DNA from: a virus | IMG/VR virus record: IMGVR_UViG_3300023442_000001 | Location: 7,299 to 71,298 of that record | DNA length: 64,000 bases | Reading direction: 5' to 3' (one strand) | Shown here: in pieces, positions 32,713 to 64,000 of the stretch | How positions within the stretch are numbered: the stretch's first letter is position 1 | Layout: every line of letters starts with the position of its first letter | Program-made: the position numbers and the translations under genes | Notes under the pieces: model-generated | Databases searched by the model: none | Told to the model about the DNA's origin: nothing | Seen by the model: only the letters and a program-made list of their open reading frames with translations

Positions 32713-32737
32713 TTCCTTTCATTTAAAGTGAACGATT

Positions 32738-33427: not shown

Positions 33428-33474
33428 TTTTTTCACCTTTTATAGTGGATTTATATCGACTTAAAATTTTTAGG

Positions 33475-33503: not shown

Positions 33504-33510
33504 GATTATA

Positions 33511-33936: not shown

Positions 33937-33981
33937 CTCCGGTTAGAATTTACACCTTTTTTGGGTTAAAAAGGGGGGCGA

Positions 33982-34458: not shown

Positions 34459-34613
34459 CTTCTAACTCCTTTCTTCCGGGTGCACCACGTCAGGATTAAA
34501 GTAATCCCCAGTTGGTACAAAAACTGGGGATAAATTCTTTCACTAATTAATATATATAACTATTTGTTTTCTAAATCATTTTATCGTAAAGAAATAATGG
34601 GGGATTTTGGGGG

Positions 34614-34624
34614 GTGAGAACAAA
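34614..34624 (+). promoter_or_regulatory. candidate late promoter GTGAGAACAAA (copy 4)
   Basis: G-run plus motif upstream of 34663. Confidence 0.7.
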
Positions 34625-34662
34625 ACTTATGAGAATCATTAAAAAAAGGAATAATTTAAATA

Positions 34663-35094: not shown

Positions 35095-35105
35095 GTGAGA
35101 ACAAA
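35095..35105 (+). promoter_or_regulatory. candidate late promoter GTGAGAACAAA (copy 5)
   Basis: Immediately after the HAD stop codon, upstream of the tube gene. Confidence 0.65.
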
Positions 35106-35166
35106 TAAAAGGATTGTGAGGCGTTATGTAATTGTTTAACGTAAAATTTTTGGAGGTATTTCTGGA

Positions 35167-35895: not shown

Positions 35896-35919
35896 GGGGA
35901 TAGAGAAAAGAATTGGGGG

Positions 35920-35930
35920 GTGAGAACAAA
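35920..35930 (+). promoter_or_regulatory. candidate late promoter GTGAGAACAAA (copy 6)
   Basis: Upstream of ATG 35994. Confidence 0.7.
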
Positions 35931-35993
35931 GAGTTGAAAGATGTGGGATTTGCCACAAATTCTAATTACTTATTTGAAGAGAGGAATAAAATA

Positions 35994-36884: not shown

Positions 36885-36924
36885 TTGATTTAGCTGTTCC
36901 ACGCACCTCCTTTTATTTTCTATT

Positions 36925-36966
36925 TCTCTCCCCCTATTGGGTTTTCCAATGGGGGGAGAGATTTTT
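36925..36966 (+). terminator. intrinsic terminator
   Basis: TCTCTCCCCCTATTGG / CCAATGGGGGGAGAGA followed by TTTTT. Confidence 0.8.
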
Positions 36967-36969
36967 AGT

Positions 36970-36980
36970 GTGAGAACAAA
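36970..36980 (+). promoter_or_regulatory. candidate late promoter GTGAGAACAAA (copy 7)
   Basis: After the terminator, upstream of the baseplate operon. Confidence 0.7.
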
Positions 36981-37075
36981 GGGTTGAGATAGAAAATAGC
37001 GAAAAGACTTGATTTTTGAATCATTATTGATTAGAATATAACGCGAAACCCAAACTTTGAAAAGGAGAATGAGAA

Positions 37076-37864
37076 ATGCCATTCACAGGATTCCAAGTTG
37101 AATATCCAAAGTATGAAGTAATTACCCCGCAAACTAAGAAATCATTTACGGTACGTTCTTTAACTGTCGCAGAAGAAGAAAGACTTAAGGGAAGCTTCGT
37201 TACACCTGCAAAAATTACAGAACATTTAAATCGTTGTCTTTTCGATGCTATTGTTGAAAAGCCAGAAGGAATTCATGATTTCAATTCGTTTCTGAAAAAT
37301 TTAACAATTAAAGATCGTGAAGCACTTCTTTTTGGTTTATACCATATCACATATGACGAAGATCGAAATTATACCGTTCGATGTGTGTCCTGCGGGAAAA
37401 CATATGATGTAACGGTAGAAGCTTCGGATACATTTAATTTTAATCCATATCCTGGTGATGATATTCTTGAAAAGCGTATTCCCTTGAAGCTCAAAGTTTT
37501 ATCAAATGTAACAGTTGTTTTAAAACAACCTACTCTCATGGATGAATGGATGGCCATTAAAGATTTGGCTAGAAATCCAACTTTCAATTTAGATAATATT
37601 ACGGAAACATTGATTATTGAATCCATTACAAACGAACTTCCAAGCGGGGAAGTTATAGAATACACAGATCGTGGTGATATTATTGATGCTTATAAGGCCC
37701 TTCCTGCTAGGGATAAAAGAATTATTTATAAAACTTGGTATGAAGAAGTTGGACAATATGGAATCGATCTCAAAATGAAGTCTTATTGCGTACATTGTGG
37801 GGCCGAGGAGGTAGTAAATATCGACCTTTCCGAGCAATTTTTTCGCGCAATCTTTGAATCATAA
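37076..37864 (+). CDS. baseplate hub assembly protein (T4 gp26-like)
   Basis: P.Y.V..P......VRSLTVAEE motif and two CxxC pairs. Confidence 0.7.
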   Translation: MPFTGFQVEYPKYEVITPQTKKSFTVRSLTVAEEERLKGSFVTPAKITEHLNRCLFDAIVEKPEGIHDFNSFLKNLTIKDREALLFGLYHITYDEDRNYTVRCVSCGKTYDVTVEASDTFNFNPYPGDDILEKRIPLKLKVLSNVTVVLKQPTLMDEWMAIKDLARNPTFNLDNITETLIIESITNELPSGEVIEYTDRGDIIDAYKALPARDKRIIYKTWYEEVGQYGIDLKMKSYCVHCGAEEVVNIDLSEQFFRAIFES

Positions 37865-38078
37865 TGAAATTGATAGATATAGAAAAGATTTAGAAGAAAC
37901 TATTTTTTTGGTCATGGAAACGTCTAAACAAAGTTATCCAGAAGTAATGACTATGCCAGTTCATAGATTTAAAAATTATCTCAATTGGAAAATCAAATTT
38001 GAGGAACAAAAAAGAAAACTAATGGAAAAAGAAATGGAGAAATCTTCATCCTATGGCTTCCAAAATAGAAAAGTTTAA
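37854..38078 (+). CDS. small baseplate/tail assembly protein
   Basis: SY.EVM.MPV..F..Y motif typical of the small gene that follows gp26-like genes; start uncertain. Confidence 0.5.
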   Translation: MNHNEIDRYRKDLEETIFLVMETSKQSYPEVMTMPVHRFKNYLNWKIKFEEQKRKLMEKEMEKSSSYGFQNRKV

Positions 38079-38481
38079 AAAATATTTAATTGGATCAGAA
38101 GATCAATATATCGATTATGTAGGAATAATTTCTCCTTCTGGGGAATTAAGAAAAGTGACAAACCTGGAAGCTATTCTTAATTCTTGGATGAATATTCTTC
38201 GAACGCCAAAAGGCACTCATTTATATGATCCAGAATTTGGTTCAAATTTACATAAATTTATTTTTGAACCTGTGACCGAAGAAACGGCGGAAGCTATCCG
38301 TGAAGATATTTATGATTCTATAATGAATTATGATGATAGGGCATCGATTGATTCAATCGATGTCCTTTTTTTTAAAGATAGGAAAGGTTTTGTTGTGGAA
38401 ATTACGGCTAAATATGGAAATGAAACTAAAAAAATAAAAGTCCCTATTTTGGATTTAATTTATCCAACGGAGACGGCTTAA
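38053..38481 (+). CDS. baseplate wedge gp25-like protein
   Basis: NILRTPKG....DPEFGS.L..FIFEP...YDDR motif. Confidence 0.9.
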   Translation: MASKIEKFKKYLIGSEDQYIDYVGIISPSGELRKVTNLEAILNSWMNILRTPKGTHLYDPEFGSNLHKFIFEPVTEETAEAIREDIYDSIMNYDDRASIDSIDVLFFKDRKGFVVEITAKYGNETKKIKVPILDLIYPTETA

Positions 38482-38484
38482 AAA

Positions 38485-39129
38485 ATGCAGAATTATTTAC
38501 GAATATATGATTATATACATGAATATCAAAATCTTATTTATGATTATTATAGTAAACATGCGATTGCCTTTATTGTTACGTATTATAATTTAAATAAAGA
38601 CGTAACCGTATGGGATGATGATACCGTATTTAGTGGATCATATGAACGAATTGGAGATATGACAGGAATAAGATTTAATAAAATTTTAACTTTACCAGTT
38701 TTTTATATTGAAGAAATTAATACTATATTTGACGCTAGAGAAGAAGGTTATCTAAAAGATGGAGAAACGAGCTTTGTGATTCCGTCTTCATATGATTTTG
38801 TTCCATATCCAGGGGACTTTATTAAATTAGAACAATCAGTTTTAAGACCAAATAATGATATATATCCTGTTTTTATTGTAACTGGGGTTGAAAAATCTGT
38901 TAATACAGATAAAACATTTTGGAAATTAAAGGCTAAAGTCAGAGAAAGTTTGACAACGACACAATTAGATAATCAAGTTGAGAATTTATATGCTTTTGTG
39001 GAATATACCAAAAATATTCATACATATGAAGATGCTTTAATTATAGCACAATCACTTAAACGTCATGAAGAGTTAGCACAAGTTGCAAAAAATTTTTTCG
39101 ATAGAAATTCCGGATTCTATTTTATTTAG
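38485..39129 (+). CDS. virion structural protein (neck/baseplate-associated, uncertain)
   Basis: Position in the baseplate operon; beta-barrel-like P.PGDFI...F.VTGV segment. Confidence 0.45.
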   Translation: MQNYLRIYDYIHEYQNLIYDYYSKHAIAFIVTYYNLNKDVTVWDDDTVFSGSYERIGDMTGIRFNKILTLPVFYIEEINTIFDAREEGYLKDGETSFVIPSSYDFVPYPGDFIKLEQSVLRPNNDIYPVFIVTGVEKSVNTDKTFWKLKAKVRESLTTTQLDNQVENLYAFVEYTKNIHTYEDALIIAQSLKRHEELAQVAKNFFDRNSGFYFI

Positions 39130-39140
39130 GGGTATGATAC

Positions 39141-42020
39141 ATGGCCAATCAATTACCGTCTGAACAGATCTTTCTTTCAAAAGATAAGATTCGATCTGAT
39201 TTAATAGAGAAACATCTTAAAACTTATATGGAATTAGAAAATGTTGATTTAGTTGAATCTTCATTTTTATCATTTTTGGTTGACGTTTTATCAACATTAT
39301 CGTCAAATTTATTATTTTATCAATCCTCTGTATATAGAGAATTCTTTTTAACTACGGCCCAATTACCTAATTCTGTTTTTAATTTATCTAAATTTTTAGG
39401 TTATAACCCAAAAGAAGCAACGCCTGCTGAAACATCTTTATTAGTCTCTGTCCCTTTAACATTTGAAGATGATAATGTTTATTTTAAAATTCCAAGATAT
39501 GATATTAGTCTGGGTCAAACATTTAAATTTTTAGCTGGAGATATTCAATTTATTTCAACTCATGATGTTGAGGTATTTATTGAAAATCAATTGGCTAATC
39601 CTGTAGCTAAATTAAGATATACAGACGAATTAGGTAAAACATTATCATCGACAGGGCAAGTTGATTTAAATAAGAGAATTCTCTATTTTGCGGTTCCTGT
39701 AAAACAAATAGAATATAAACAGTTTGAATTTCAAGTTGACAGTGCTTTACGTGCTTTTCAGTTTTATGATATTTTTGTTTCTATTCAAGGCGATCATGTT
39801 GCGACAATTGAGGTTCAGGTAAAAGAACCGGGAAGTAATTCATATATAACTTGGCAAGAATATGATTCTCTTTATTTAATGGATTCAGATACTCGTGGAT
39901 ATATTGTTCAAAGAAAAGAAAATGGCCGACAAATTTATTTTGGGAATGACGTAATCGGAAAACAGCCACCAGCCGGATCAACAATTCTAGTGACTGTTGG
40001 ATTGACAAAAGGAAAAGCTGGAAATGTTATCAAGGGAACAATCAATAGAGGAGATACTCTTTATCATACAGAAATAACAATAAATGGAATTACGTATAAT
40101 TCAAGTATACCGTCCGATAGAGTTAAAATTGTTTCATATTCTGTAACGAATCCAAATGCTGCTCAATTTGGTGATGACGAAGAATCTCTAGAAGATATTA
40201 GAAAAAATGCATTAAATAATCTGACGGCTTCACAAAGACTTGTTTCGTATAATGATTTTTTAAACCTTTCATCTGTGCTTCCAAACTTGGATACAAATTT
40301 ATTAAAGAATACGACTCCGATTTTGAAAAAATCTGATGCGCGTATTAATGAAATTCAATTATTTAATGTTCTGAAATATAATAATGAAATTATTCCTATT
40401 CGTAATTTATTTACGACAAAGCCAGCCGGTGTTGAAACAATTCAAAGATTTGAAATAATTTCAGATGGTGAAAAAGATTATTATTCTATGTTTGATATCG
40501 AATGGCAAGAAGAAGAGTATGTGGCAGGTGTTTCCAGCCATATGGCAAATTATGTTTATTATGTAGATTCATATACTGCGACTCCCAATGTTGAAAATTC
40601 TTATAACCCAACGAACTATAGCGTTTATCCTGTTAATTTTAATATTGTTACGGATCGAACCACTAAAGAGGCAACCGTAATTTTTGAATATTTTTCTTCG
40701 GAAAAAGATACTGATCATGAATTAAATCCGTTTATCGATGGAACTGACCATCTCAGAATATATTGTGACATGACGATTGTAAATAATGGTCAAACATTGC
40801 GTATGGAACGTGTTAAAGATAGTTATACTGTTGATATAGGTCAACAAAATGATTCTATTATTACAATACTTGAAAATATTTCATCGACGACTCCATCTTC
40901 GGGTTATATAGAATTGACAAATGGAGCTGAGACGGTTTATTTTAAATATAAAAGTAAAAATGATACGTTAAAACAGTTTACTTTAGAGAATGGGGTAACA
41001 TTAGATAAAGATTATGCGGGATATACGTTGAATATCATAACAAATGATTATAAATTTATTTTGTCTGGGCTCGCTAAAGAACGTTTCGAAGAGGGACCGG
41101 TTACATTATCTTTTTCTCTTTATCATCCAGCTCTTGATACTTCCCGGTCATTATTGACAGCAACAGTTGGGTTCACTTTTAAAAAACAATTATCAACCGT
41201 TATGAAAAGTAATATGAAAATTGGGACCGGAGCTACAATTTATGATATCCCTTGTATTGAAAAAGTTTATTACGATAATCTTGTAGCGCAAGGAGAAAAA
41301 GAACTTTTTGAAAGTATTGTTATGCAGACTTTTGTCAATTCATTAAATCTTGATAATTATAGGATGCTAACTGATTTTACAAATATTAAATTTACGAATA
41401 CGACTGGAAAAATTAAAAATATGGCGTTTAATGAAGTAACGAAAACAATTGAGAGTCGTTCTTTAACTTCCGTTCCAAATCCTACAACAAATACTGGTAA
41501 AGCATATATTGTGAACGGAAGAGAATCTGGTGATTGGAATCCAGGGACACCAAATACGTTCTATACCGATTATATAGCGATATCAGATGGATCAACTTGG
41601 CTTTTTATTGAACCGAAATTAGATATGGTTGTATACATAAATGATGAATCTATCAAATTAACATATTCTGAAGCTGGCTGGCTTACGACAAATAATTATG
41701 AAATTCCCTTACGAATTGTTTGTGATGTATATCCAAAAAGCACATATACGGGAGATCCATTAAAATTAGTTGACGAAATTAAAGAAACATTAATTTCTGC
41801 ATTTGAAGATCGTTTCGGAGGGGATATTACAATACATAGATCTGAAATTATCGACGTTATTCATAATGTTGAAGATGTTAGTCATGTTCAATTGATTGAG
41901 CCAAGAACTTCGATTTTTTTCAATTATGATTTGCGTTCTCTAACTCAAGATGAACTTTTGAAATATGGGCCAGAATACGTCTATTTTAATAAAGATTCTA
42001 TCTTCATTAGGATTAGATAA
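39141..42020 (+). CDS. baseplate wedge protein (T4 gp6-like)
   Basis: EFFLTTAQ..NSV....KFLGY.P, IYFGNDVIGK.P, T.G..GN, G.DEESLEDIR...QRLVS..D motifs. Confidence 0.85.
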   Translation: MANQLPSEQIFLSKDKIRSDLIEKHLKTYMELENVDLVESSFLSFLVDVLSTLSSNLLFYQSSVYREFFLTTAQLPNSVFNLSKFLGYNPKEATPAETSLLVSVPLTFEDDNVYFKIPRYDISLGQTFKFLAGDIQFISTHDVEVFIENQLANPVAKLRYTDELGKTLSSTGQVDLNKRILYFAVPVKQIEYKQFEFQVDSALRAFQFYDIFVSIQGDHVATIEVQVKEPGSNSYITWQEYDSLYLMDSDTRGYIVQRKENGRQIYFGNDVIGKQPPAGSTILVTVGLTKGKAGNVIKGTINRGDTLYHTEITINGITYNSSIPSDRVKIVSYSVTNPNAAQFGDDEESLEDIRKNALNNLTASQRLVSYNDFLNLSSVLPNLDTNLLKNTTPILKKSDARINEIQLFNVLKYNNEIIPIRNLFTTKPAGVETIQRFEIISDGEKDYYSMFDIEWQEEEYVAGVSSHMANYVYYVDSYTATPNVENSYNPTNYSVYPVNFNIVTDRTTKEATVIFEYFSSEKDTDHELNPFIDGTDHLRIYCDMTIVNNGQTLRMERVKDSYTVDIGQQNDSIITILENISSTTPSSGYIELTNGAETVYFKYKSKNDTLKQFTLENGVTLDKDYAGYTLNIITNDYKFILSGLAKERFEEGPVTLSFSLYHPALDTSRSLLTATVGFTFKKQLSTVMKSNMKIGTGATIYDIPCIEKVYYDNLVAQGEKELFESIVMQTFVNSLNLDNYRMLTDFTNIKFTNTTGKIKNMAFNEVTKTIESRSLTSVPNPTTNTGKAYIVNGRESGDWNPGTPNTFYTDYIAISDGSTWLFIEPKLDMVVYINDESIKLTYSEAGWLTTNNYEIPLRIVCDVYPKSTYTGDPLKLVDEIKETLISAFEDRFGGDITIHRSEIIDVIHNVEDVSHVQLIEPRTSIFFNYDLRSLTQDELLKYGPEYVYFNKDSIFIRIR

Positions 42021-53388: not shown

Positions 53389-54141
53389 TTAAATGATGTA
53401 TTCTTCCCACTTCATAATTGTATGAAGAATCTTAATGGCGTGATTGACGTCTTTAACCTTATCGTGACGCTCGTATAGCTTTGTAAATACATCAATCAAT
53501 GGAATTGATTCATTGATCAGTTTATCATAAAAATTATGAAATTCTCTAACATCCACCATAGACTCAAATGGAATGTTCCTAAGATCTGTTGTCATTTCCA
53601 CAAGCTTATATCGATCAAGATTTTTCTTAGATTTCGAAATATCCATGCGTGTTGGGATAAAAATTCCTCGATGATATGTTCCATAAAAAATTGTATGTGT
53701 AATACGCAGACCATACCAACGCATATATTCATCGTTAATTTGAAATTCGATCATATACCCATTGTTATACATTAACATTTGCGTTGGAGCAAGGTCAGGA
53801 ACCTTAATCTTGTGTGTCTTTACAACAGGATAAAGATCATCGACCGATTCATCTTGTTTCGAAGGAGCCACGAAAATAATACATTTATCTACAATAACAT
53901 GTGTTCCTTCATCGGGAATGATATTAAGAGATTTTACGGAAGTAATTTCTCGTTTATATTTTTGCCACCATTGAGACAATGATAACATCGAATATTCATT
54001 CGTCACAGGAGTCTCTTCCTGTTGTTCAGGTTCTGAAATAGTTTCTTCCTGGACTAATTTTTCTGGTTCTTGAGCTGTCGGTGGCATAGTTGGAGAAGTT
54101 TGATTATCAATTCCCTTTAAAAGATTTTGGATGTCAATCAT
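53389..54141 (-). CDS. hypothetical protein coupled to the RNAP beta gene
   Basis: ATG 54141 overlaps the end of the beta gene; disordered acidic N-terminus. Confidence 0.6.
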   Translation of the reverse strand: MIDIQNLLKGIDNQTSPTMPPTAQEPEKLVQEETISEPEQQEETPVTNEYSMLSLSQWWQKYKREITSVKSLNIIPDEGTHVIVDKCIIFVAPSKQDESVDDLYPVVKTHKIKVPDLAPTQMLMYNNGYMIEFQINDEYMRWYGLRITHTIFYGTYHRGIFIPTRMDISKSKKNLDRYKLVEMTTDLRNIPFESMVDVREFHNFYDKLINESIPLIDVFTKLYERHDKVKDVNHAIKILHTIMKWEEYII

Positions 54142-57088
54142 TTTTGTCTCCCTTGGTTGATGGTTGGTCAACGATTTCTATCCCGATTACTTTCAAATAT
54201 GAATCAAATAAATTTACAATTTCTGGTGTTTTTATTTCTTCATTTGATTCAGTTTCATTTATTAAATGTTTGACATAAGCAAAACTATCTGAACGTAAGA
54301 AAAATTCTTGTAATGTTTTAGGCATATCTAAAGCAATAAGACATGCCGCTTCCATTTCTCCAAATCTTTGACCGCCTTTATTCCTCTTTCCTCCTAATGG
54401 TTGGAGCGTCCGTTTTGAATATGGCCCAATAGATCGAGCAGCTAATTTATTTTTAGCAATATGATTTAATTTCATTATATACATATAACCTAAAGCAATA
54501 TCAAAACTTTTATTTAATTTAGGATCATAAATAGTTTCTTCAAAATCCCGCCCAACATATTCTAATGCTTTTTGAATATTTTCATATTTTGGAGATTCGA
54601 ATGGATACAGAAGTAAATAAAGATTATTTAAAAAGTCTTCGGTTATTTCTTTGATTTCTAATAATTTCTTAAAATCTGCTACCATTTTTTGATCTTTTGT
54701 TGGATCGATTAACTTAATAAAATCAAATATATATTCTTTAATCTTAAAGGATGGTTCATTATTTCTTAACATTTTTTTGGCATTTTCGCGGACATGATGA
54801 AATGCCCACCCTAAATGTAATTCAAATAATTGTCCTAAATTCATTCGGGAGATGATTCCTAATGGATTGATAATCATCTCTAATGGTTGATCGTCCTTTG
54901 TTTTAGGCATTTCTTTGTCAGGAACGATCTTGGTGATTACACCCTTTCCTCCATGTCGATTTGCTAGCTTATCTCCCAAACTAATATAATCCTTATAAAT
55001 AAGATTAAATTTAAATAACACACCATTAATCTTTTCGCCTTTATATTTTAGGCGACCAATATAATCGAAAACATTAAGATTCCATTTATCACAAAGATAT
55101 TTATACTGATCTGATTTCTTTCCATATGATTGTTCAATTATTTTTTTGATTTTATTATTTCGTTCAGATTCTTTGCTAATTCTATGTTCGATAAAATTAT
55201 TAAATGCTCGGATAGTTGTATTCCATTCATTTGGATAGATATGAAGATCACCCACAAGATAAGTTTTCTTAGCTACATGTGTTATTTCATCTAATAAAAT
55301 TTTATCACTATCTTGAGCATATTTATATGGGATAGATTTAATCCTTGCATAAAAACTTCCCTGATTAATAGTTTCTAATTCTTCGTAAAGTGGTTTGTCA
55401 TTATCCAATAACAGAAGAACTTGATCTGGAGTTAGTAAAATTTCTTTTTCTTCGATATGTAGAGACGTTAATTTTTTAGCAGCCGACTCGGAAATTACAA
55501 TTCCGTCTTCATAATTATAACCATTAATCATAATTCCTGTTAAAAGATTTTTTCCAAACATTAAAATATCATTATAATAATGAGAATACGCTAAGATATC
55601 TCCCTTATTAAATTTTCCATTGTCGATAAGGTCCGGATTTACATAAAATAAAGATAAATTGTCTTGAATATTGATTGGACCGATTCGAATAATATCAACT
55701 TCACCATTTTTATATGCCACAATGAGCATACTCATTTCATCTAAATAAACGACTTCACCATCATCTTTAGCGACTTTCACTGTTTCCGATTCGACCAAAA
55801 ATTCTTTCTGTGCTTTTGTAGCGATTAATGGTCTTTCGAATTCTTCTAAAGGAATAGCTTGCCGCATCTGTGATGCAGCCATTTGTAATCGAGTTTGGTC
55901 GTTATGTTCAATAAATGGAGTTAATAACGGAATTGTAACAATATTTGTTTCTTCATTAATTTCTTCTGAAAATCGTCCCGTTTCATCTAATTTACAATTT
56001 GGAATTAAACTTTGAATAATTCCACAATTATCTCTATCAGGTGTATCTACAGGATCTATACGACCATACATCGAATCATGTAAATCTCTAAATTTTGGTG
56101 GTATATTATCCCTATTAAATGAATTAGGTCCAATTAATGTACTTCGGACTTTTTTTGTTAGAAAATCAATTGGGTTAATAGAGAAATCATATTGAATGAC
56201 ATTACTCTGATTACAATGACTTAAAAGAATTTGTTTATTGATTTTAAATCGTGGTTTATGTCTCCTATTATGCAGCGCAAATTCAAATAATTTTGAAATA
56301 ATTATAGGTAAAAATGATTCTGATTGAACTCGTTTATTACGATAATCCAAATCGTCAATAAAAATATTATTTTCTAAAATATGCATAAATTCATCTACAA
56401 TATTATCTGTATGTAAAAATTGAGAATTGATAATATCTATTTTAGGGGCTAAATTTAAAGCATATAAAAAGTCATCCCCTTTATTATATACATCTGTTTC
56501 CGAAATATAAGATCCAATTTCCCTAATCAAATCTGAATCATCCATCTCAGATGATTCTTCAGCTATTAATTGAAGTTCTTCTAAAAATGAATTATACAAA
56601 TTATGTGCGTTTTCATTGGGTTTAAATGAAAAAGATCGATCCCTTAGAAAATAATAAAATATTAAGGATGCAGGACAATACTTTCCTAAAAAGTTAATAT
56701 AAAAATGAAAAGGTGTATCTGACTTATCTCTGTAAAGGAAAGTAATTGAGGCCATATTAAATTTTATTGTAATAAAATCTTCTGTAATTCTAAATGGAAT
56801 GTCTAATATTTGAAAATAAGGGATCTTTTTATATCCATTGATAATAAAATGATCATCATCTAAAATTGGGATATTTAAACTTAAATCTATCGTTTTCGTT
56901 CCTTTACGAAAAATAATTGTAATTTTATTTTTCAGAGTTTTATCAATGATATTTTTTTCAGGAGAAAATGTTACATTAAATTCTTCTAACTCAAAATCTG
57001 TTTCATTTTGAACTATTTCTAAACAGGTTTTAAGTTTATTATAAAAATCAGAATATTCTTTACGCCGATATTCAAAAATGTTATTCAC
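54134..57088 (-). CDS. rpoB: phage DNA-directed RNA polymerase beta subunit
   Basis: YGRIDPVDTPD...G, QMRQA.PL, GYNYEDGIVISE, GDKLANRHGGKGVI, SRMNLGQ and GGQRFGEME motifs. Confidence 0.96.
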   Translation of the reverse strand: MNNIFEYRRKEYSDFYNKLKTCLEIVQNETDFELEEFNVTFSPEKNIIDKTLKNKITIIFRKGTKTIDLSLNIPILDDDHFIINGYKKIPYFQILDIPFRITEDFITIKFNMASITFLYRDKSDTPFHFYINFLGKYCPASLIFYYFLRDRSFSFKPNENAHNLYNSFLEELQLIAEESSEMDDSDLIREIGSYISETDVYNKGDDFLYALNLAPKIDIINSQFLHTDNIVDEFMHILENNIFIDDLDYRNKRVQSESFLPIIISKLFEFALHNRRHKPRFKINKQILLSHCNQSNVIQYDFSINPIDFLTKKVRSTLIGPNSFNRDNIPPKFRDLHDSMYGRIDPVDTPDRDNCGIIQSLIPNCKLDETGRFSEEINEETNIVTIPLLTPFIEHNDQTRLQMAASQMRQAIPLEEFERPLIATKAQKEFLVESETVKVAKDDGEVVYLDEMSMLIVAYKNGEVDIIRIGPINIQDNLSLFYVNPDLIDNGKFNKGDILAYSHYYNDILMFGKNLLTGIMINGYNYEDGIVISESAAKKLTSLHIEEKEILLTPDQVLLLLDNDKPLYEELETINQGSFYARIKSIPYKYAQDSDKILLDEITHVAKKTYLVGDLHIYPNEWNTTIRAFNNFIEHRISKESERNNKIKKIIEQSYGKKSDQYKYLCDKWNLNVFDYIGRLKYKGEKINGVLFKFNLIYKDYISLGDKLANRHGGKGVITKIVPDKEMPKTKDDQPLEMIINPLGIISRMNLGQLFELHLGWAFHHVRENAKKMLRNNEPSFKIKEYIFDFIKLIDPTKDQKMVADFKKLLEIKEITEDFLNNLYLLLYPFESPKYENIQKALEYVGRDFEETIYDPKLNKSFDIALGYMYIMKLNHIAKNKLAARSIGPYSKRTLQPLGGKRNKGGQRFGEMEAACLIALDMPKTLQEFFLRSDSFAYVKHLINETESNEEIKTPEIVNLFDSYLKVIGIEIVDQPSTKGDKND

Positions 57089-59726
57089 ACTCTGTTTCCT
57101 CCACCGAGATTCCTCGTAAAATTTTATCGAAAATTCCTCGATATCTTACATTTCCATATTTTATTCCATTTAACAGATGTCTCTTAGGATTCTCAAATCC
57201 GAGACCAAGAATCCATGATTCTAAAGCTGGAACGCTTTTAATGGACATAAAGTGAAATGGATATTTTTCCCTATCAGGAATTAATCTCCATTTCATTCCA
57301 TTATGCCACATTAATTGTGAAACAATGCATTCAAAATGAACATGATTAATCGTACTATTATTATTGTATATATCAAAGATAGATTTTACTAAATCTTCTG
57401 GAGTTTTATTTTCAACTTTATCATAATGATGTAAAAGATATGAAATGATTGATAAATCATTAACAATATCTTGTTGTTTAAACTGAATATCTCTAACAAT
57501 GGCTGTTCCAGATGTATGAAATGTTCTTAAAACTAATTGCGTATTTACTTCTCCTAATGACTGTGCGCTTATTACTCCGATAAATCTTGAATCAAGTTTT
57601 TTATAAAATTCTCCATAACATGTCAAACAAATCTTTTCATTTTTACAGAAAATAGGAGACCTAATAAAGATAGTTTTTCCAATAAGTGATTTATAATTTT
57701 CTTTATCGATAATCGAAATATTTACATCATCCTTATTAAAGGAAAACCATTTTCCGATCAAAAGTCTGGCTTTCTTTTCTGAATCTACATCAACACGTAA
57801 TTTATCATTTGTCCCACAATCTTTTGTGTTCAAATCCAATTCAAGATTGATTGTTAAAAATATAAGTTTTCTAGATAAATATCCAGAGTTTGAAGTATTC
57901 AAAGCAACATCTAAAAGTCCTTTGCGAGATCCATATGTCGAAATAAAAAATTCATCTTTCGTAAGCCCATGTAATAATGAATGTTTAATTGGTTTATTTA
58001 AAATTTCGCCTTTAAAATTAGAAATAAATCCTCTAGTTAAAACTAATTGTTTTGCCTGATCCCAACTTCCTCTAGCTCCTGACTCAATAAGATCCTTATA
58101 TTTAAAATTTTCTTTTATTTTTTGAATTGTCTCATCTGAAGAAAATAATTTCAATTGAGTTTCAGAATCATTTGTCTTTTCGAAAATAGATTTTCTAATT
58201 TCTTCAAATGTTTGATTATAAAATCCTTTAAGAGATAAAGTATTTCCAAACGATGAGCTTAAAAATCCTAAATCTTTAATATTATCAATCACTTGTTTTG
58301 TCGTTTCTACATCATAATTGTCTTTTACTTCATTTAAAATTGATATGAGTTTTTTCTTATCTATAGGTCCTTCATATTTAATGTCTAAATCTTCTGGAAA
58401 TTGTTGTTTAAAAATTTTAAAACCTTCTTCTGACTTCGTTAAATTAAAAATTCCTAAAACAACATCCTGATTCGGAGTTGTAATTAACGATCCGTTTGCA
58501 GGTGATGAAAGAAGATTCGTAATAACTTTATCTTTAAGTTCATCTTGAGATTCTAATGAAATATAAATTGCCATTTGATCGCCGTCAAAATCCGCATTAT
58601 ATGGTGGACAAATTAAAGGATGTATTTTAATTACTTCTTCAGGCGTTGGAAGAATTTTAAAAATTGATAGACTTGGCCTATGTAATGACGGCTGTCTATT
58701 TAAGAAACAATATTCTCCGTTAACAATTTCTGATAAATCTTCATATATATCAAGTTTTCTATATTGTATACAATCATCTATAAATTGAATAGCTTCATTT
58801 ATAAATTTAAATTTTCCTTTATAAATTAAATGTTTAGCTAAATGTATTTTATATAATTCTAATAGAATAAAATACGAAATACGACACTCATCTAATTTAA
58901 GAGTTGGATCTGGAACGATAACAGCTCTCCCAGAGAAATCGATCCTTCGACCCAACATATTATGTCTTACTAAACCTTCTTTCTTAGAAAGCTTGGCCAA
59001 AATATGATTATATAATTCATTCACTGATTTTTGAATTTGTCGGTAATACCAATTAAAAAGTTTTGGATTATTATTAATATTGAAATTTGACGAAATAATA
59101 CTATTCTTTCGAATTAAAATAGTTGAATAATATCGATTGAATTCATCTAAAACACTAACTTTTCCCTCCATGATTGGCCTTAAATCAGGAGGAATGACCA
59201 GAATATTATGAATGAATAATTTATCTATATTCTGAGCAACAATAGACAAATCTTCTGTTTTGCTCAGCTCATTTTCAACAAGAATTTTGATTGCGTCTAT
59301 GCCTGTATAAACTTTTGCATCTTCTTTTACACTTTCCACTTCATCAATAATTAGGGATTTATCTGTTTCATAGACAATATGTTTTCCTGATAAAATATGA
59401 TTAATGATTTTTTTGCTTAAATTTAATTCATTTAAAAGATCGAAAAATATGGGATTGATGATTGGAAATGGTAATGAAATCTTAGCAAATCTTTGTCGTC
59501 TGACATTCGAATGTTCAATATCAACGTTACAAATAGAACATTTAGAGCCCGCTTTTGCGGGTCCATAATAAACACCACATTGGCACATATAATTATGTTT
59601 AGGTCCAAAAATCTGTTCCGAAAATAAGCCTTCTGGATGATAATGGGATTTTAAGAAAATTTTATGTGTTGTAATCTCTGGCAAAGATTTGGCATATTCA
59701 TCTATATTTAGAAGAATTGGAAACAA
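57081..59726 (-). CDS. rpoC: phage DNA-directed RNA polymerase beta' subunit
   Basis: GLFSEQIFGP plus Zn finger, PPDLRP, LGRRIDFSGRAVI, NRQPSLH, catalytic NADFDGDQ, SGYLSRKL and QLVLRTFH. Confidence 0.97.
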   Translation of the reverse strand: MFPILLNIDEYAKSLPEITTHKIFLKSHYHPEGLFSEQIFGPKHNYMCQCGVYYGPAKAGSKCSICNVDIEHSNVRRQRFAKISLPFPIINPIFFDLLNELNLSKKIINHILSGKHIVYETDKSLIIDEVESVKEDAKVYTGIDAIKILVENELSKTEDLSIVAQNIDKLFIHNILVIPPDLRPIMEGKVSVLDEFNRYYSTILIRKNSIISSNFNINNNPKLFNWYYRQIQKSVNELYNHILAKLSKKEGLVRHNMLGRRIDFSGRAVIVPDPTLKLDECRISYFILLELYKIHLAKHLIYKGKFKFINEAIQFIDDCIQYRKLDIYEDLSEIVNGEYCFLNRQPSLHRPSLSIFKILPTPEEVIKIHPLICPPYNADFDGDQMAIYISLESQDELKDKVITNLLSSPANGSLITTPNQDVVLGIFNLTKSEEGFKIFKQQFPEDLDIKYEGPIDKKKLISILNEVKDNYDVETTKQVIDNIKDLGFLSSSFGNTLSLKGFYNQTFEEIRKSIFEKTNDSETQLKLFSSDETIQKIKENFKYKDLIESGARGSWDQAKQLVLTRGFISNFKGEILNKPIKHSLLHGLTKDEFFISTYGSRKGLLDVALNTSNSGYLSRKLIFLTINLELDLNTKDCGTNDKLRVDVDSEKKARLLIGKWFSFNKDDVNISIIDKENYKSLIGKTIFIRSPIFCKNEKICLTCYGEFYKKLDSRFIGVISAQSLGEVNTQLVLRTFHTSGTAIVRDIQFKQQDIVNDLSIISYLLHHYDKVENKTPEDLVKSIFDIYNNNSTINHVHFECIVSQLMWHNGMKWRLIPDREKYPFHFMSIKSVPALESWILGLGFENPKRHLLNGIKYGNVRYRGIFDKILRGISVEETECE

Positions 59727-59744
59727 AGGCAGTTCCTCCGTATG

Positions 59745-60188
59745 TTAGAATAATCCAAATGAGTCGATAAAATAAAATCTCTCATCTTCGGTTAAATATT
59801 TTGAATATTCTGGGACAATAGGATAAGGAATTTCTTCAATAAGAATGATTTCATCTAAAAATTGTTGAACTTTCTTTCTAGAAAGTAATACATTTAAATT
59901 CCAGAAACAAAGTTCTTGTCTTACATATTTTACTACGTCTAAAAAATTATTAAAAGAAACATACATAGATTTAATTTCTTCCGGTAAACAAATGCTTTGA
60001 TCTCCTTTTTTCAAAGGATGTTTACCATAAAAATAGATGTTTTTGATTTTCCCTTTTTTTATATCTAAAATAAAACCCCTTGATTTATAATTCTTTTTAT
60101 GATGTATTCGATATAATTTAGGAAATTCCGTAAAGTTTGGTATTAAAACTAATGTTGGTTCAATTTTTGAAATAATTGGTACCAACAT
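59745..60188 (-). CDS. putative E2/UBC-like conjugating enzyme
   Basis: HPLKKGDQSICL has the same H-P-x8-C spacing as the UBC active site (HPNIxxxGxICL); lies in the Ubl operon. Confidence 0.5.
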   Translation of the reverse strand: MLVPIISKIEPTLVLIPNFTEFPKLYRIHHKKNYKSRGFILDIKKGKIKNIYFYGKHPLKKGDQSICLPEEIKSMYVSFNNFLDVVKYVRQELCFWNLNVLLSRKKVQQFLDEIILIEEIPYPIVPEYSKYLTEDERFYFIDSFGLF

Positions 60189-60200
60189 TACATTCCCCCC

Positions 60201-61025
60201 CTAACATGCATATGTTTCAGGACATATCATGAGGTCACCTCCTGGTAGTGTTTTCAAGAGAATAATCTTCCCTCGAAAAAAATTGTAACATTGAAAAATC
60301 AATTTGTCAATTTTATTTATTAAATTTTTTAAATCACTTTTTACAATTTCATCATATGAACATATAGTTCCTTTATAGAAAACATATATGGTAGATTTAA
60401 ATTTAAAATTTTTAATAAATTTTTGCAGCTCAATTGATGATAAAATATATGAAAACTGATTTTTATATTTAGAGGAAAGAATTAAATCAATATGTGCTTT
60501 GGAATAATTCAATTCCACGATTGATAAATCGTCTTTTATGACGACAAATTTTTCATCTAATTGGTTGAAATTGTTGATATATGTTTCTATGAACTTATTT
60601 AATGTATTTCTATCTAAGACTATACTATAATCTTCTGATATAATCCTCCTGGGTAGAAACTCTTTTTTCTTACGTGCATCGACAAAAAGATCATTTTCAT
60701 TAAAATAAATTTTATGTGATTTTTGATAATAATGTGAACTATCTCTTGTGTCAATAATTAATTCTCCCGAAATTTTTTCATCTGAAACAAAAAATGGAAA
60801 TGCTTGTACTTTAATATTTGGATATTGTTGAGTCAACTTTTGTTTTAAAATAAGGGCCTTATTTTGTCCAATATCATGTTCCGTATATGGAGTATTAAAT
60901 AAATTCTTTTCTTTAACAATATCCCCATCATAAATGTTAAGTTCAGTTATTTGATTTGGAAAAGTGTTAATTTTTGTGGCAATATTGGAACCGACACTCC
61001 CCACCCCTAAAATAGAAATCCTCAT
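60201..61025 (-). CDS. ThiF/E1-like protein 2 (degenerate adenylation domain plus unknown C-terminal domain)
   Basis: GVGSVG, DGDIV..KNL and DIG.NKA motifs; lacks the RQ of the NLxRQ motif. Confidence 0.8.
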   Translation of the reverse strand: MRISILGVGSVGSNIATKINTFPNQITELNIYDGDIVKEKNLFNTPYTEHDIGQNKALILKQKLTQQYPNIKVQAFPFFVSDEKISGELIIDTRDSSHYYQKSHKIYFNENDLFVDARKKKEFLPRRIISEDYSIVLDRNTLNKFIETYINNFNQLDEKFVVIKDDLSIVELNYSKAHIDLILSSKYKNQFSYILSSIELQKFIKNFKFKSTIYVFYKGTICSYDEIVKSDLKNLINKIDKLIFQCYNFFRGKIILLKTLPGGDLMICPETYAC

Positions 61026-61039
61026 GTTCCCTCCGCTAT

Positions 61040-61081
61040 AAAAATTAAAAGAGGGAGAGAGGCAATTTATCCTCTCTCCCT
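61040..61081 (-). terminator. hairpin terminator/stabiliser after the Ubl gene
   Basis: AGGGAGAGAGG/CCTCTCTCCCT stem followed by CTTTTAATTTTT on the minus strand. Confidence 0.75.
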
Positions 61082-61093
61082 GTATATTACGAA

Positions 61094-61525
61094 TTAACCC
61101 TTACTTCCAGCGGGGCGAATGAATTCGAGATTATCCCCTTCTTTGAGAACGTAAGAATAGCTTTCTACCTGCCCATTTACATAAGCTTCTGCACCGGCAG
61201 GGATGTTCAGAATCTGATTAAGAAGATCCATCACATCCCGAACACTCTTACCTACCAGTGGAAAAGTATCTCGGTTGGCACCACAGGACACCCGGATAAG
61301 AGCGGATACGCTATTGTCGTCCTCATTCCGTACCGCATTTACTGTTGCACGAACGCCGCCAAGGCTGTTGCTTTCAGAAGTTGTCTCATTTGTTGCGGTA
61401 TGATTCAGGATAGCATCGATCATTACGGCCTTGCGAGCCTTCCTCATACCGGAAATACCAAGAGCCTTGCAGATTTCATAGAGTTCGGGAACAGTCTTGG
61501 CGGTCAGTTCATCACGAGTGTACAT
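61094..61525 (-). CDS. ubiquitin-like (beta-grasp) protein with N-terminal Rho-N-like domain
   Basis: EL..KTV.EL..I.K.LGI.G..K.RK..MI.AIL (Rho_N pattern); C-domain ends ...VNG.......L.EGD.LEFIRPAGSKG with terminal Gly. Confidence 0.8.
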   Translation of the reverse strand: MYTRDELTAKTVPELYEICKALGISGMRKARKAVMIDAILNHTATNETTSESNSLGGVRATVNAVRNEDDNSVSALIRVSCGANRDTFPLVGKSVRDVMDLLNQILNIPAGAEAYVNGQVESYSYVLKEGDNLEFIRPAGSKG

Positions 61526-61556
61526 AGATCTCTCCTTAATGATGATTGGTGAAAAA

Positions 61557-62249
61557 CTATCGGGCTACACGTTGTTTGGCGTCCAAAATTAATGGACTTC
61601 TAAGATCAAAATACCACTCAGAATAATTTTTAAAATCTAAATTATTTAAACATTGATAAAATACACACAACATAGTCGATGCTATATACATATTCGTAAA
61701 TAATAGTTGAGGACTTGATACTTGTCGTTCTTCACAACTTAATTCATGAGGCAGTTTGTCAGAAAAATTTTCAATTTCCGGATGGTACTGCGTTAAGTCT
61801 GGTGTTTCATTTTTCCCTCCTTTCTTGATGAAGAGTTGTACGTTACCATCATATAATTCATTACCACCATTAATAATAATAATATTATTAAGATTTTTAG
61901 CATGTTCATTAATAAGATATCTTGTTTTGTGATTATCTACACAAATAAATACAATATCTTTATCTTGAATAAATTCATGAATATTATCCTGATCTAAATA
62001 AATAAAATGTGATTTAAATTTTACATTTGGAAATTTAGTTTGGAGTTCAATTCGCTTTACGTTTGATTTACTCGCCACTCCTTCGATGTTTTCGAATGTC
62101 TGGCGAGCTTTATTTTTTTCTTCATAAATGTCACCATCAATAAGATGAACTGTTACATCTTCATTTCCCTCCGAATAATTTAAAAATCGACTCAGATAAT
62201 CTGTGACAAATGTTCCAATTCCTCCAAGTCCAACAATCACGATTCGCAT
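61557..62249 (-). CDS. ThiF/E1-like activating enzyme
   Basis: GLGGIG, DGD.YE.KN..RQ, K, CVDN..TR, GGNE...G.V, candidate catalytic Cys in SCEE, and PQL..TN. Confidence 0.9.
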   Translation of the reverse strand: MRIVIVGLGGIGTFVTDYLSRFLNYSEGNEDVTVHLIDGDIYEEKNKARQTFENIEGVASKSNVKRIELQTKFPNVKFKSHFIYLDQDNIHEFIQDKDIVFICVDNHKTRYLINEHAKNLNNIIIINGGNELYDGNVQLFIKKGGKNETPDLTQYHPEIENFSDKLPHELSCEERQVSSPQLLFTNMYIASTMLCVFYQCLNNLDFKNYSEWYFDLRSPLILDAKQRVAR

Positions 62250-62262
62250 TTAGACTCCTTTC

Positions 62263-62970
62263 TTACCAATTCATATTATGAAAATTGCTTGTTAACCAAT
62301 TTGGATAATGATTAGTATATTGATGTCTGATAGGCTGTGCCTGGGATACTTGCGTCATCCATTCAGATGGATATTTCGCATATTGAAATCTTCCAAAATT
62401 TGAAATAATTTTATTCGGATCTTTTACAATAGCCCTAAATCCATCTACCACAATACTAATACTCATAGACGGTGTTTTGTCAATATTTCCTAAAGTGATA
62501 TGTAATCCATCAAAATATTGTTCATCATTTGAATCAACAGAAGAATGAAATGCATTCATGTTTCCATGGGAATGAATAGTCCCGAATAAAGATAATTCTT
62601 GTGGGTGAAGAATATTATTTGAATACGAAAGATGACCTCCTGATACCATTTGTTTCGGGGCGGAAAGATAATATTGATTATCGTTATCAATATAAATTAA
62701 AACAATTGCTTCAGAATGATATTTTTTATATACGTCTAGAAAAAATGAATATGTAATATTCATAAGTTCCATTGGAAAATTAAAACTTGACTTAAGTTCA
62801 ATCCATTCTTTAGGATCAGATAAAACAGGAATTTGAAATTTTTTACTTTTTGTTAATGATTTATAAAATTGTGTTTCTCTTTTAATATATACACCACTTT
62901 TTCCAACAACGAATGCGATTTTGGATTCTGGTTTAAGATTTTCATTCCGACATATAATAACGTCAAACAT
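62263..62970 (-). CDS. JAB/MPN+ metallo-isopeptidase
   Basis: Glu in SEA, then GTIHSH...AFHS..D..DE and DGLHITLG. Confidence 0.9.
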   Translation of the reverse strand: MFDVIICRNENLKPESKIAFVVGKSGVYIKRETQFYKSLTKSKKFQIPVLSDPKEWIELKSSFNFPMELMNITYSFFLDVYKKYHSEAIVLIYIDNDNQYYLSAPKQMVSGGHLSYSNNILHPQELSLFGTIHSHGNMNAFHSSVDSNDEQYFDGLHITLGNIDKTPSMSISIVVDGFRAIVKDPNKIISNFGRFQYAKYPSEWMTQVSQAQPIRHQYTNHYPNWLTSNFHNMNW

Positions 62971-62973
62971 TTG

Positions 62974-64000
62974 TCACCTCATTGTTCGGGCCATATTGAA
63001 AGATCTATCGTGGGATGGATGTATTACAGATCGATATAACCATATCATTTTTTTGAAAATTGTATCATAAATTTGTCGTGGAGATTTTCCAAATGTAAGA
63101 CCACATAACATACGTTTTTCGGGTGTTAAATAATCAGAAATTGGTGCACTAATAGGATACACACAATCACCTTCAATTTTAATTCTTGGTCTAACCGGTT
63201 TAAAATATTCCGTTTCTAAAATATCAAATGGAAGCCCAAAATTATTATTTGTGATAACAACTTTATATCCATGCCATAAAATTTCATATTTTAATTTAAT
63301 GTTTTGACCTCGGCAATATCCATAAGTATTTAAATGACACTTAAACCATACATCTTCTGTATATGTTTTGAGAAGTGGATATAAGAAAATGTTTAATTTT
63401 GCATACGATGTATCAAAAGATGTGTTTATGACTACTAGATATCTTTCAAACGTTTCATCATTGCATTCTAAAAGAACTTTAATATTACCATCATCGTCAT
63501 AATATAGATCTAAAATTTTTACAATTTGATTATTATATTCATCATGAATACAATAGAAATAATATTCTCCAACTTTTACCGTATAAAAATTCCCGTTTGC
63601 TTCTCTCAAAGAAATAAATTTAATCCCATCTTCTTCTTGAATTAAATCATTCGGAATATGATTATAAAGTTTTGAGGGATGTATAAATAATTTATCATCA
63701 AATTCAAATGTTTCAAACTCACATATCGCTGTTCTAAATACTCCACTCTCTGGTTTAAAAAGATCTTTTTTAATGAACTTTCTATTATATTTAAAAAATT
63801 GATCTTCGTACAAAGGTAATGAGAGTGGAATACATGAATATATATTTTTTTTGACTGATATAATTCTGAAATAATTTTCTAAATAATTTACATCAATCTC
63901 ATCACCAAATATATCTTTCAAAATAAATGGATTAATTTCTTTAATATCAGAGATTGAAATGACAGTTGTCGTATATGTATCCGGGAACTTCACTCTAAGA
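62974..64000 (-). CDS. hypothetical protein upstream of JAB (probably 5'-truncated)
   Basis: Frame is open to the window edge; 3-nt gap to the JAB start codon. Confidence 0.6.
   Translation of the reverse strand, partial: LRVKFPDTYTTTVISISDIKEINPFILKDIFGDEIDVNYLENYFRIISVKKNIYSCIPLSLPLYEDQFFKYNRKFIKKDLFKPESGVFRTAICEFETFEFDDKLFIHPSKLYNHIPNDLIQEEDGIKFISLREANGNFYTVKVGEYYFYCIHDEYNNQIVKILDLYYDDDGNIKVLLECNDETFERYLVVINTSFDTSYAKLNIFLYPLLKTYTEDVWFKCHLNTYGYCRGQNIKLKYEILWHGYKVVITNNNFGLPFDILETEYFKPVRPRIKIEGDCVYPISAPISDYLTPEKRMLCGLTFGKSPRQIYDTIFKKMIWLYRSVIHPSHDRSFNMARTMR

Follow-up and report, generated by a model that had tools for sequence, protein, structure and literature searches.

A Rho_N–ubiquitin-like fusion protein and its conserved neighbourhood of E1-like, E2-like, JAB and RNA polymerase genes in probable large tailed phages

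The window is a stretch of 64,000 nucleotides, positions 7,299–71,298 of the IMG/VR virus record IMGVR_UViG_3300023442_000001. The gene described here (61094–61525, minus strand) encodes a small protein with an N-terminal Rho_N module and a C-terminal ubiquitin-like (Ubl) domain, hereafter Rho_N-Ubl. It is accompanied by two E1-like genes, an E2-like gene and a JAB gene, and it is rather likely to encode the modifier of a phage-borne, conserved Ubl conjugation cassette directly upstream of the genes for RNA polymerase (RNAP) beta' and beta. The record is 71,298 bp long, with an estimated completeness of 23%. Genes of the window include those for a tail sheath, a tube-like protein, a baseplate protein, tail fibres and a large terminase, which marks the record as a piece of a large tailed phage's genome. 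The lineage consists of uncultured large tailed phages, probably jumbo phages. The related loci comprise 59 from IMG/VR (L002–L060; contigs up to 277 kb, about 12 kb per locus), with 53 distinct loci holding a full Ubl gene and 50 distinct Ubl proteins. Alignments comprised 73 members with a single Rho_N, 44 E1a sequences and 38 E2-like sequences.

The Rho_N-Ubl protein and its family

Features of the gene and its immediate flanks are as follows.

61094–61525, minus strand: Rho_N-Ubl gene, 143 aa, ATG start; the coordinates include the stop codon (61094–61096).
61388–61510, minus strand: Rho_N (helix-extended-helix) module, residues 6–46, Pfam PF07498.
61334–61375, minus strand: S/T/N/E-rich flexible linker, TATNETTSESNSLGG, residues 51–64, of low predicted local distance difference test score (pLDDT).
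61097–61333, minus strand: beta-grasp ubiquitin-like domain, residues 65–143, from the AlphaFold2 (AF2) model and Foldseek.
61530–61537, minus strand: Shine-Dalgarno-like AAGGAGAG, 4 nt 5' of the ATG, read from the sequence.
61042–61081 (stem 61052–61081), minus strand: hairpin with a T-rich tail resembling an intrinsic terminator, from a scan and its minimum free energy (MFE).

The N-terminal module is assigned to Rho_N by the Pfam gathering cut-off (PF07498, 34.4 bits against a cut-off of 24.9, E 2.1e-8, model positions 1–41 of 43). A profile of eight homologues matched the Rho chain 3l0o_A at positions 5–49 (E 1.4e-3). Rho_N was matched at E ≤ 0.01 by 50 of the 73 family members, SAP by nine and HeH by two. 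The AF2 model, built with 73 homologues, has a mean pLDDT of 86.8, with helices at residues 4–8, 12–22 and 32–50 and a beta-grasp at 65–136. The linker is unstructured around residues 51–64 in the model (mean pLDDT 47 for block 51–60) and varies in length and sequence among homologue alignments. The Ubl part is modelled with pLDDT 84–96 over blocks 71–140, as strands, a helix at 95–106 and further strands. Its best Foldseek rows against the PDB are nearly all Ubl, MoaD, NEDD8, SUMO, SAMP and TtuB chains, among them MoaD 6jbz_B, NEDD8 3dqv_B, SAMP1 4hro_B, TtuB 5gha_H, Mth1743 1ryj and ubiquitin, with TMt 0.58–0.71 and a root-mean-square deviation of 2.2–3.2 Å over about 70–80 columns. The domain is thus predicted to have the beta-grasp fold. 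Of the known Ubl-domain families, ThiS (matched by 15 of the 73 relatives at E ≤ 0.01) and TGS are the nearest. In the BFVD fold search, matches were to the Ubl or to the Rho_N separately, and no viral protein spanning both domains was returned. The Ubl protein matched none of the PADLOC models scanned.

The C-terminus reads RPAGSKG-stop, with the glycine exposed at the end of the beta-grasp. A Rho_N-like module, an S/T/N/E-rich linker and a Ubl ending in a single-glycine KG had been read from the letters in the first-pass annotation; the Pfam match, the AF2 model, the linker sequence and the C-terminus all bear this out. Conservation is highest at the very C-terminus (AGxKG), where K142 never varies among the 73 single-Rho_N members and G143 is kept in at least 90% of them. 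Among the 50 IMG/VR proteins, 32 end in KG, 14 in KGC and four in one to five further residues.

Representative homologues (clusters at 50% identity, exhaustive HMMER search) number 478 at E ≤ 1e-3 and 118 at E ≤ 1e-10. Architectures were assigned with two hidden Markov models, cut from the 73-member alignment, in 156 proteins (the best 150 representatives and the first eight matches), and are distributed as follows.

Rho_N-Ubl: 99 of 156.
Rho_N twice, then Ubl: 20 of 156.
Rho_N three times, then Ubl: 1 of 156.
Ubl alone: 20 of 156.
Tandem Ubl, two copies: 7 of 156.
Tandem Ubl, three copies: 5 of 156.
Tandem Ubl, four copies: 1 of 156.
Rho_N arrays only: 3 of 156.

In this set 85 of the 156 proteins terminate exactly at [AGSP]GxKG and 39 are extended beyond it, 17 of them by a single Cys; the other 32 lie outside the end pattern, and by eye 10 of these also end in KG. 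The Ubl of this phage is thus ready-made; about one third of its relatives are not. The tandem poly-Ubl forms, with two to four beta-grasp repeats (e.g. P0011, P0016, P0037, P0040, P0101 and P0120), recall polyubiquitin precursors.

Outside IMG/VR, the closest relative is a 211-kb contig, BPGB01000002.1 (GC 0.275), binned in a metagenome-assembled genome (MAG) of 'Candidatus Woesearchaeota'. Its locus, 28017–40478, holds the whole cassette, with identities of 57% (JAB), 65% (E1a), 65% (Ubl), 54% (E1b), 38% (E2-like) and 76% (beta'). It probably belongs to a phage and not to an archaeal chromosome. Homologues of about 90 aa consisting of the Ubl only occur at 11 loci in Desulfobacterota MAGs (contigs of GC 0.54–0.63), with 41–49% identity to residues 71–143; most end in GEKG followed by zero to five residues. 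A further Desulfobacterota locus, L074, appears frameshifted. One of the Ubl-only genes adjoins an IS1595 transposase. With tblastn, no E1 or JAB was found within 6 kb of the Ubl-only genes. Searches of 50,697 phage records returned no cultured phage with the Ubl (tblastn) and no match to 59700–64000 (blastn).

Cassette genes and synteny

All genes of the cassette lie on the minus strand, in the order JAB, E1a, Rho_N-Ubl, E1b, E2-like, RNAP beta', RNAP beta.

62263–62970, minus strand: JAB/JAMM metallopeptidase, 235 aa, with HxHx7SxxD in the translation.
61557–62249, minus strand: E1a, E1-like adenylating enzyme, 230 aa, Pfam ThiF at E 6.5e-21.
60201–61025, minus strand: E1b, second E1-like protein, 274 aa, ThiF at E 1.8e-10 over residues 2–84 only.
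59745–60188, minus strand: E2-like protein, 147 aa, containing GKHPLKKGDQSICLPEE, with an HP..C motif.
57081–59726, minus strand: RNAP beta', 881 aa, unsplit.
54134–57088, minus strand: RNAP beta, 984 aa, unsplit.

The order is kept across the lineage. In the 59 loci, tblastn placed beta' in the same order and strand in 58, beta in 57, E1a in 55 and JAB in 54. E1b was found by tblastn downstream of the Ubl gene in 40 of the 59, with 11 further cross-hits on E1a; judged by position, an E1b-sized open reading frame (ORF) follows the Ubl gene in 54 distinct loci. Cassette genes missing from the tblastn results were mostly at contig ends. The E2-like ORF directly follows E1b in 37 relatives. Against annotated rpoC, of cultured phages or of bacteria, RNAP beta' reaches 24–30% identity. 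The ORF upstream of JAB (62974–63993, minus strand, 339 aa) has no family match and no counterpart in the 59 loci; JAB is therefore the upstream edge of the cassette. About half of the relatives carry an extra ORF of 140–215 aa between Ubl and E1b, and most carry one or two ORFs of 65–90 aa between the E2-like gene and beta'; both kinds are absent from the window.

E1a has an intact adenylation site, judged from its residues, and a candidate catalytic Cys. G7, G9, G10, G12, D38, R49, Q50, D105, N106, R110 and C172 are invariant in all 44 sequences; GxGGxG, R49–Q50, D105–N106 and R110 are presumably the adenylation residues, as in MoeB and ThiF. Matches in NCBIfam are to PRTRC_ThiF (E 1e-12, below cut-off) and to the SAMP-activating E1 (E 1.8e-13). 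In E1b, the nucleotide-binding glycines G7, G9 and G12 are invariant, as are D33, D35, D92 and R94; the R–Q pair of active E1s is missing. E1b may thus serve as a partner without E1 activity, or its own tail may be a substrate. Its end is a nearly invariant ETGAA in relatives and PETYAC in the window.

Matches of the JAB protein to PRTRC_A (E 2.6e-10) and to Prok-JAB (E 3.5e-4) stay short of the family cut-offs. Its motif HSHGNMNAFHSSVD fits HxHx7SxxD, as HSHx7SxxD, which we take to be the JAMM motif. It matched none of the PADLOC models.

For the E2-like protein, the window's ORF gave no Pfam or NCBIfam match and a single weak, chance-level row among the PADLOC models. All 38 sequences share H57 and C67, and at least 90% of them share P58, with the consensus HPNA.P.TGEFCLP; we take this H57/C67 consensus to be the E2/UBC active-site pattern. 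The AF2 model (pLDDT 82.9) has its best Foldseek match to UBC (E 0.24) and a best VIA Z of 4.3; most of the top 50 fold rows are E2/UEV chains, including BubB 9eav_D (Z 3.8), all of them weak. The motif points to a putative minimal E2-like enzyme. In the complex prediction of E1a, E1b and Ubl (residues 62–143), the control scored equal to the query, and the result was used in neither direction.

Composition, codon usage and the 3' hairpin

The Ubl gene stands out from its AT-rich surroundings. Sliding-window GC is 0.43–0.49 within it against 0.18–0.35 in the flanks. The 71,298-bp record yields 60 non-overlapping ORFs of 80 aa or more. The gene has a GC of 0.477, where their median is 0.308; its GC at third codon positions (GC3) is 0.438, where the median is 0.202 (standard deviation (sd) 0.066, about 3.3 sd), the second highest of the set. 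TTA and TTG make up none of its 12 Leu codons, against 59% TTA among Leu codons elsewhere in the record; AAG accounts for six of seven Lys codons, CAG for both Gln codons and ATC for five of eight Ile codons.

The same holds across the lineage. In every one of the 59 relatives the Ubl gene exceeds the remainder of its locus in GC (+0.066 to +0.219, mean +0.129), and its GC correlates with that of the genome background (r = 0.86, n = 50) at a nearly constant offset. Ranked by GC3 among about 10 plus-strand ORFs in each of 53 loci, it is first in 40, second in six, third in four and lower in three. Codon fractions pooled over the 53 loci are given below for the Ubl gene and its neighbours, with the number of loci showing the same direction.

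TTA: 0.05 in Ubl, 0.42 in neighbours; lower in 53 of 53.
CTG: 0.34 in Ubl, 0.05 in neighbours; 43 of 53.
ATC: 0.38 in Ubl, 0.13 in neighbours; 48 of 53.
TTC: 0.56 in Ubl, 0.26 in neighbours; 49 of 53.
AAC: 0.38 in Ubl, 0.21 in neighbours; 44 of 53.
GAC: 0.36 in Ubl, 0.17 in neighbours; 44 of 53.
CGT and CGC: 0.49 in Ubl, 0.13 in neighbours; 51 of 53.
GGT: 0.48 in Ubl, 0.36 in neighbours; 44 of 53.
AAG: 0.30 in Ubl, 0.23 in neighbours; 34 of 53.

Highly expressed bacterial genes under translational selection classically favour CTG, GGT, CGT/CGC and, among codons ending in a pyrimidine, those that end in C. The codon shift of the Ubl gene looks like translational selection of this form, and high expression is a fair reading of this kind of bias. 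Among the sequencing runs listed as containing the stretch, none was of RNA; the DNA runs were one probable source sample and others of small share. No tRNA genes were found in the window. Besides the Ubl gene, GC3-rich ORFs of the record are 33982–34458 (minus strand, 0.459), 35913–36884 (plus strand, 0.410) and 33511–33936 (minus strand, 0.387); strong hairpins follow two of these three.

The hairpin begins 12 nt 3' of the Ubl stop. Its stem has 11 bp, seven of them G–C, with a loop of 8, and is followed by CTTTTAATTT. The MFE is −23.1 kcal/mol (z = −3.85), and none of 200 shuffles folds as well. A G+C-rich stem-loop and a U tract after the stop make it, by sequence, a candidate Rho-independent terminator. 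The 70 nt after the Ubl stop have a median MFE of −25.2 kcal/mol, against −8.1 kcal/mol for 458 other ORFs of the same loci; an MFE of −20 or below is reached by 85% of relatives and by 4% of those other ORFs. The relatives' stems differ in sequence and several lack a clear T run: it is the structure at the 3' hairpin that is conserved, not the sequence. Both the GC contrast with AT-rich neighbours and the strong 3' hairpin, recorded from the window in the first-pass annotation, therefore recur throughout the lineage; so do the domain architecture and the codon shift, with TTA avoided in every one of the 53 loci. Terminator-like sites in a 10-kb scan were not enriched (three found, 3.4 expected). 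The sigma-70 promoter scan gave 74 sites, no excess over the 64.8 ± 6.7 of shuffles, and none of them just upstream of the Ubl gene. Rfam gave no match at E ≤ 1 over 59500–63000.

Candidate function, alternatives and known systems

From the domains, residues and gene order described above we infer the following course. E1a would adenylate the free C-terminal Gly143 of the beta-grasp and probably also take the Ubl onto its invariant Cys172. In this it may cooperate with its degenerate paralogue E1b, a possible partner in the manner of the inactive subunits of eukaryotic E1s. Cys67, invariant in the small E2-like protein, would then receive the Ubl. Attachment would leave a flexibly tethered Rho_N module on each target, and this module could bind nucleic acid or a protein partner; such grafting of Rho_N onto targets, proposed from the sequence at first pass, is plausible. 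The E2-like and second E1-like genes, additional to that annotation, strengthen the conjugation reading. JAB would reverse conjugation. In relatives with KGC ends, longer tails or poly-Ubl forms, it would also expose the glycine. The earlier statement that the Ubl needs no maturation, and that JAB would hence be a deconjugase, fits the protein of this phage. It does not extend to the family, in which KGC ends (14 of 50), other tails (4 of 50) and poly-Ubl forms (13 of 156) occur; because of these extensions (18 of 50) and the poly-Ubl forms, JAB is probably also a maturase across the family.

High Ubl output would be achieved by the codon usage. The hairpin would close a JAB–E1a–Ubl unit and lower read-through into the E1b, E2-like and RNAP genes. 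That the Ubl is made in excess over the enzymes, as was first suggested, agrees with the hairpin as far as E1b, the E2-like protein and RNAP are concerned. The hairpin gives no such reason for JAB and E1a, which lie upstream of it; a gap of 31 nt precedes the Ubl gene and holds no evident promoter, so that the terminator cannot explain an excess over these two. Any such excess would need a translational origin.

This and several further points weigh against a highly expressed, conjugated modifier. All cassette genes have good Shine-Dalgarno motifs, and that of the Ubl gene is not distinctive. Structural genes, presumably abundant, are barely raised in GC3 (sheath 0.23, tube-like 0.247), and the other three GC3-rich ORFs have no usable family in Pfam, PHROGs or Atlas, their homologues all being hypothetical proteins; the link between GC3 and expression is therefore uncalibrated in this genome. 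High expression, as suggested at first pass, is thus read from the kind of codon bias. The ThiS match of the Ubl domain itself (PF02597, 19.4 bits, residues 93–139) is below the cut-off of 22.5, and no Foldseek row against the PDB reached E ≤ 1e-3 for Rho_N-Ubl, because the query has two domains. The E2 assignment comes from a motif and weak fold matches, with UQ_con matched in one of the 38 members. The record covers 23% of the genome, and partners encoded elsewhere fall outside view.

The main rival to conjugation is a sulfur carrier. Gly143 would be thiocarboxylated as in ThiS, MoaD, CysO and TtuB, Rho_N would deliver the sulfur for RNA or DNA thiolation, and JAB would trim a C-terminal cap or adduct, as Mec+ does on CysO-Cys. 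The nearness of the domain to ThiS and TGS, the presence of MoaD, TtuB and SAMP1 among the structural neighbours, the similarity of E1a above all to ThiF/MoeB adenylyltransferases and the origin of Rho_N in the nucleic-acid-binding part of Rho all agree with this. So do the KGC ends of 14 of the 50 relatives: the CysO-cysteine adduct is cleaved by a JAB enzyme, and these ends recall it. A sulfur carrier is nevertheless improbable, in view of the conserved E2-like protein with invariant His and Cys, of a C-terminus in K–G instead of the G–G usual in sulfur carriers, and of poly-Ubl precursors, which are typical of modifiers and not of carriers. Nor was any protein of the rhodanese, cysteine desulfurase, TtuA, MoaE or ThiG type found among the six proteins scanned (from 23% of the genome).

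Rho_N-Ubl might alternatively be an abundant non-covalent adaptor, or a nucleoid- or transcription-associated protein, its beta-grasp serving for protein binding only and its Rho_N as a DNA- or RNA-binding head; the neighbouring E1 and JAB would then serve something else. The codon bias and the gene's own terminator would suit a stoichiometric, abundant protein, and two or three tandem Rho_N (21 of 156) or Rho_N-only arrays (3 of 156) suggest multivalent binding. The tight synteny with RNAP genes and the orphan Ubl-only homologues of Desulfobacterota (neither E1 nor JAB seen in the surrounding 6 kb) also agree. This too is quite unlikely: without C-terminal chemistry it is hard to explain why AGxKG is the best conserved part and why the protein usually ends exactly at the Gly, and in nearly all loci the Ubl gene lies between two E1-like genes. 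Far less probable is a recent horizontal transfer from a GC-richer donor, by which composition would say nothing of expression. It would account for the sharp jump of GC, from 0.47–0.49 to 0.25–0.30 within about 100 nt, and Ubl-only homologues do occur in the GC-rich (0.54–0.63) Desulfobacterota MAGs. The excess is, however, present in 59 of 59 relatives within a conserved synteny; it scales with the genome background (r = 0.86), which argues against recent import, and the shift is codon-specific and no even gain of GC, with a small change for AAG (0.23 to 0.30) and a large drop for TTA (0.42 to 0.05). As the source of the GC excess, recent transfer was rejected.

For the conjugation cassette, the position beside the RNAP genes suggests, as a speculation, co-regulation with transcription or action on it. 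A more specific proposal is that a widespread lineage of large phages tags host or phage transcription or nucleoid proteins offensively with a nucleic-acid-binding Rho_N, by means of complete machinery of its own: an abundant modifier, an active E1 paired with a degenerate paralogue as in the heterodimeric E1s of eukaryotes, a minimal E2 and a protease of the JAMM type. This proposal is doubtful. If phage tagging were offensive, the constant RNAP linkage would reflect a role in transcriptional takeover, and the tagging would mirror the host conjugation defences Bil, Bub and CBASS.

The characterised bacterial Ubl-conjugation pathways (CBASS Cap2/Cap3, Bil and Bub) are all host defences, as far as the consulted parts of PMC11601603 and PMC11601596 describe them. 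The same kind of machinery appears here as a conserved, core-like phage module (59 IMG/VR loci, 478 modifier clusters). New in this case are a phage-borne E1/E2-like/JAB cassette, a putative modifier with a Rho_N head and lineage-wide signs of high expression, as read from the genes. Phages, too, may tag proteins in a ubiquitin-like manner. If the Ubl conjugates, the cassette would be a phage-side counterpart of ubiquitination and a simple system in which to see how a modifier with an effector domain alters its targets. The paired E1-like genes bear on the origin of heterodimeric E1s. The lineage-wide codon bias and 3' hairpin offer a clean case of expression tuning in very AT-rich phage genomes.

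No description of the cassette was found in the literature, with subscription-only papers and supplements outside view. The consulted parts of jumbo-phage reviews leave JAB and Ubl unmentioned; ubiquitin occurs there in another context only (PMC7824862) or never (PMC13282480).

Among known systems, the PRTRC genes of integrative and conjugative elements, too, encode a small Ubl together with a JAB and a ThiF-type E1, likewise on a mobile element. The scores fall far short of the curated PRTRC cut-offs: JAB has 40.2 against 101.8 bits for PRTRC_A (TIGR03735), and E1a 47.9 against 144.75 for PRTRC_ThiF (TIGR03736). PRTRC_C (TIGR03738) was not matched at E ≤ 1 by the Ubl protein or in a six-frame search of the record, so the likeness of the Ubl to PRTRC protein C that had been proposed is not supported. 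Across the 71-kb record (23% of the genome), nothing matched PRTRC_B at E ≤ 1; ParB-related and PRTRC D, E and F families were absent from the NCBIfam matches of the six proteins, with no search aimed at them. The present genes differ further in being carried by a phage, with two E1-like genes and a Ubl with a Rho_N head. By sequence, the cassette is distantly PRTRC-like and not a PRTRC member. In the publications listed, PRTRC serves as a label in annotation.

Bil and Bub operons have an equal parts list (Ubl, E2, JAB and E1). Their Ubls include ones with a single beta-grasp after variable N-terminal domains; those named in section 5 of PMC11601603, apart from its Table S1, which lay outside view, are coiled coils, DUF1508 and N/G-rich tails, with Rho_N not among them. 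They are host anti-phage defence operons, whereas the present genes lie in phage genomes beside RNAP genes, and as described in the consulted text the Bil and Bub operons hold no second E1-like gene. Bub enzymes are reported, in the part of PMC11601596 consulted, to work via oxyesters and without a catalytic Cys; here, E1a and the E2-like protein have invariant cysteines. Type II CBASS has Cap2, an E1–E2 fusion, and Cap3, a JAB that acts as reverser. A JAB is present here too, and PADLOC 'E1-E2' (Cap2-type) models match the Rossmann part of E1a (to E 4.4e-11) and of E1b (to 1.2e-10). CBASS, a host defence system in which E1 and E2 form one protein, differs in that it conjugates the C-terminus of the cyclase itself and not a separate Ubl.

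The archaeal SAMP/UbaA/JAMM and Thermus TtuB/TtuC systems likewise have a ThiS/MoaD-like beta-grasp with C-terminal Gly, a MoeB/ThiF-like E1 and removal by JAMM. They have no E2 and no Rho_N, end in Gly-Gly, are cellular and double as sulfur carriers. The Rho_N module resembles in sequence the N-terminal helical subdomain of Rho factor, to which the HeH, SAP and LEM motifs are related; unlike in Rho, no OB-fold RNA-binding domain or ATPase accompanies it.

Among viruses, the tail assembly protein I of phages lambda and T1 is a Ubl with a conserved C-terminal Gly encoded beside the JAB protein TAPK, according to the consulted part of PMC1779556; as described there, it belongs to a tail module without E1 or E2 and carries a C-terminal domain after the Ubl, whereas the Ubl here is itself C-terminal and is encoded in an enzyme cassette beside the RNAP genes. 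Three ThiF/E1-like proteins are reported from Asgard 'Nidhogg' viruses in the consulted part of bioRxiv 10.1101/2021.07.29.454249. Among phage records, the only counterparts of E1a are ThiF genes with 27–31% identity to it, from a fecal contig and three Bacillus jumbo phages. The context inspected for one of these ThiF genes differs from that of the cassette: it adjoins a NADAR gene.

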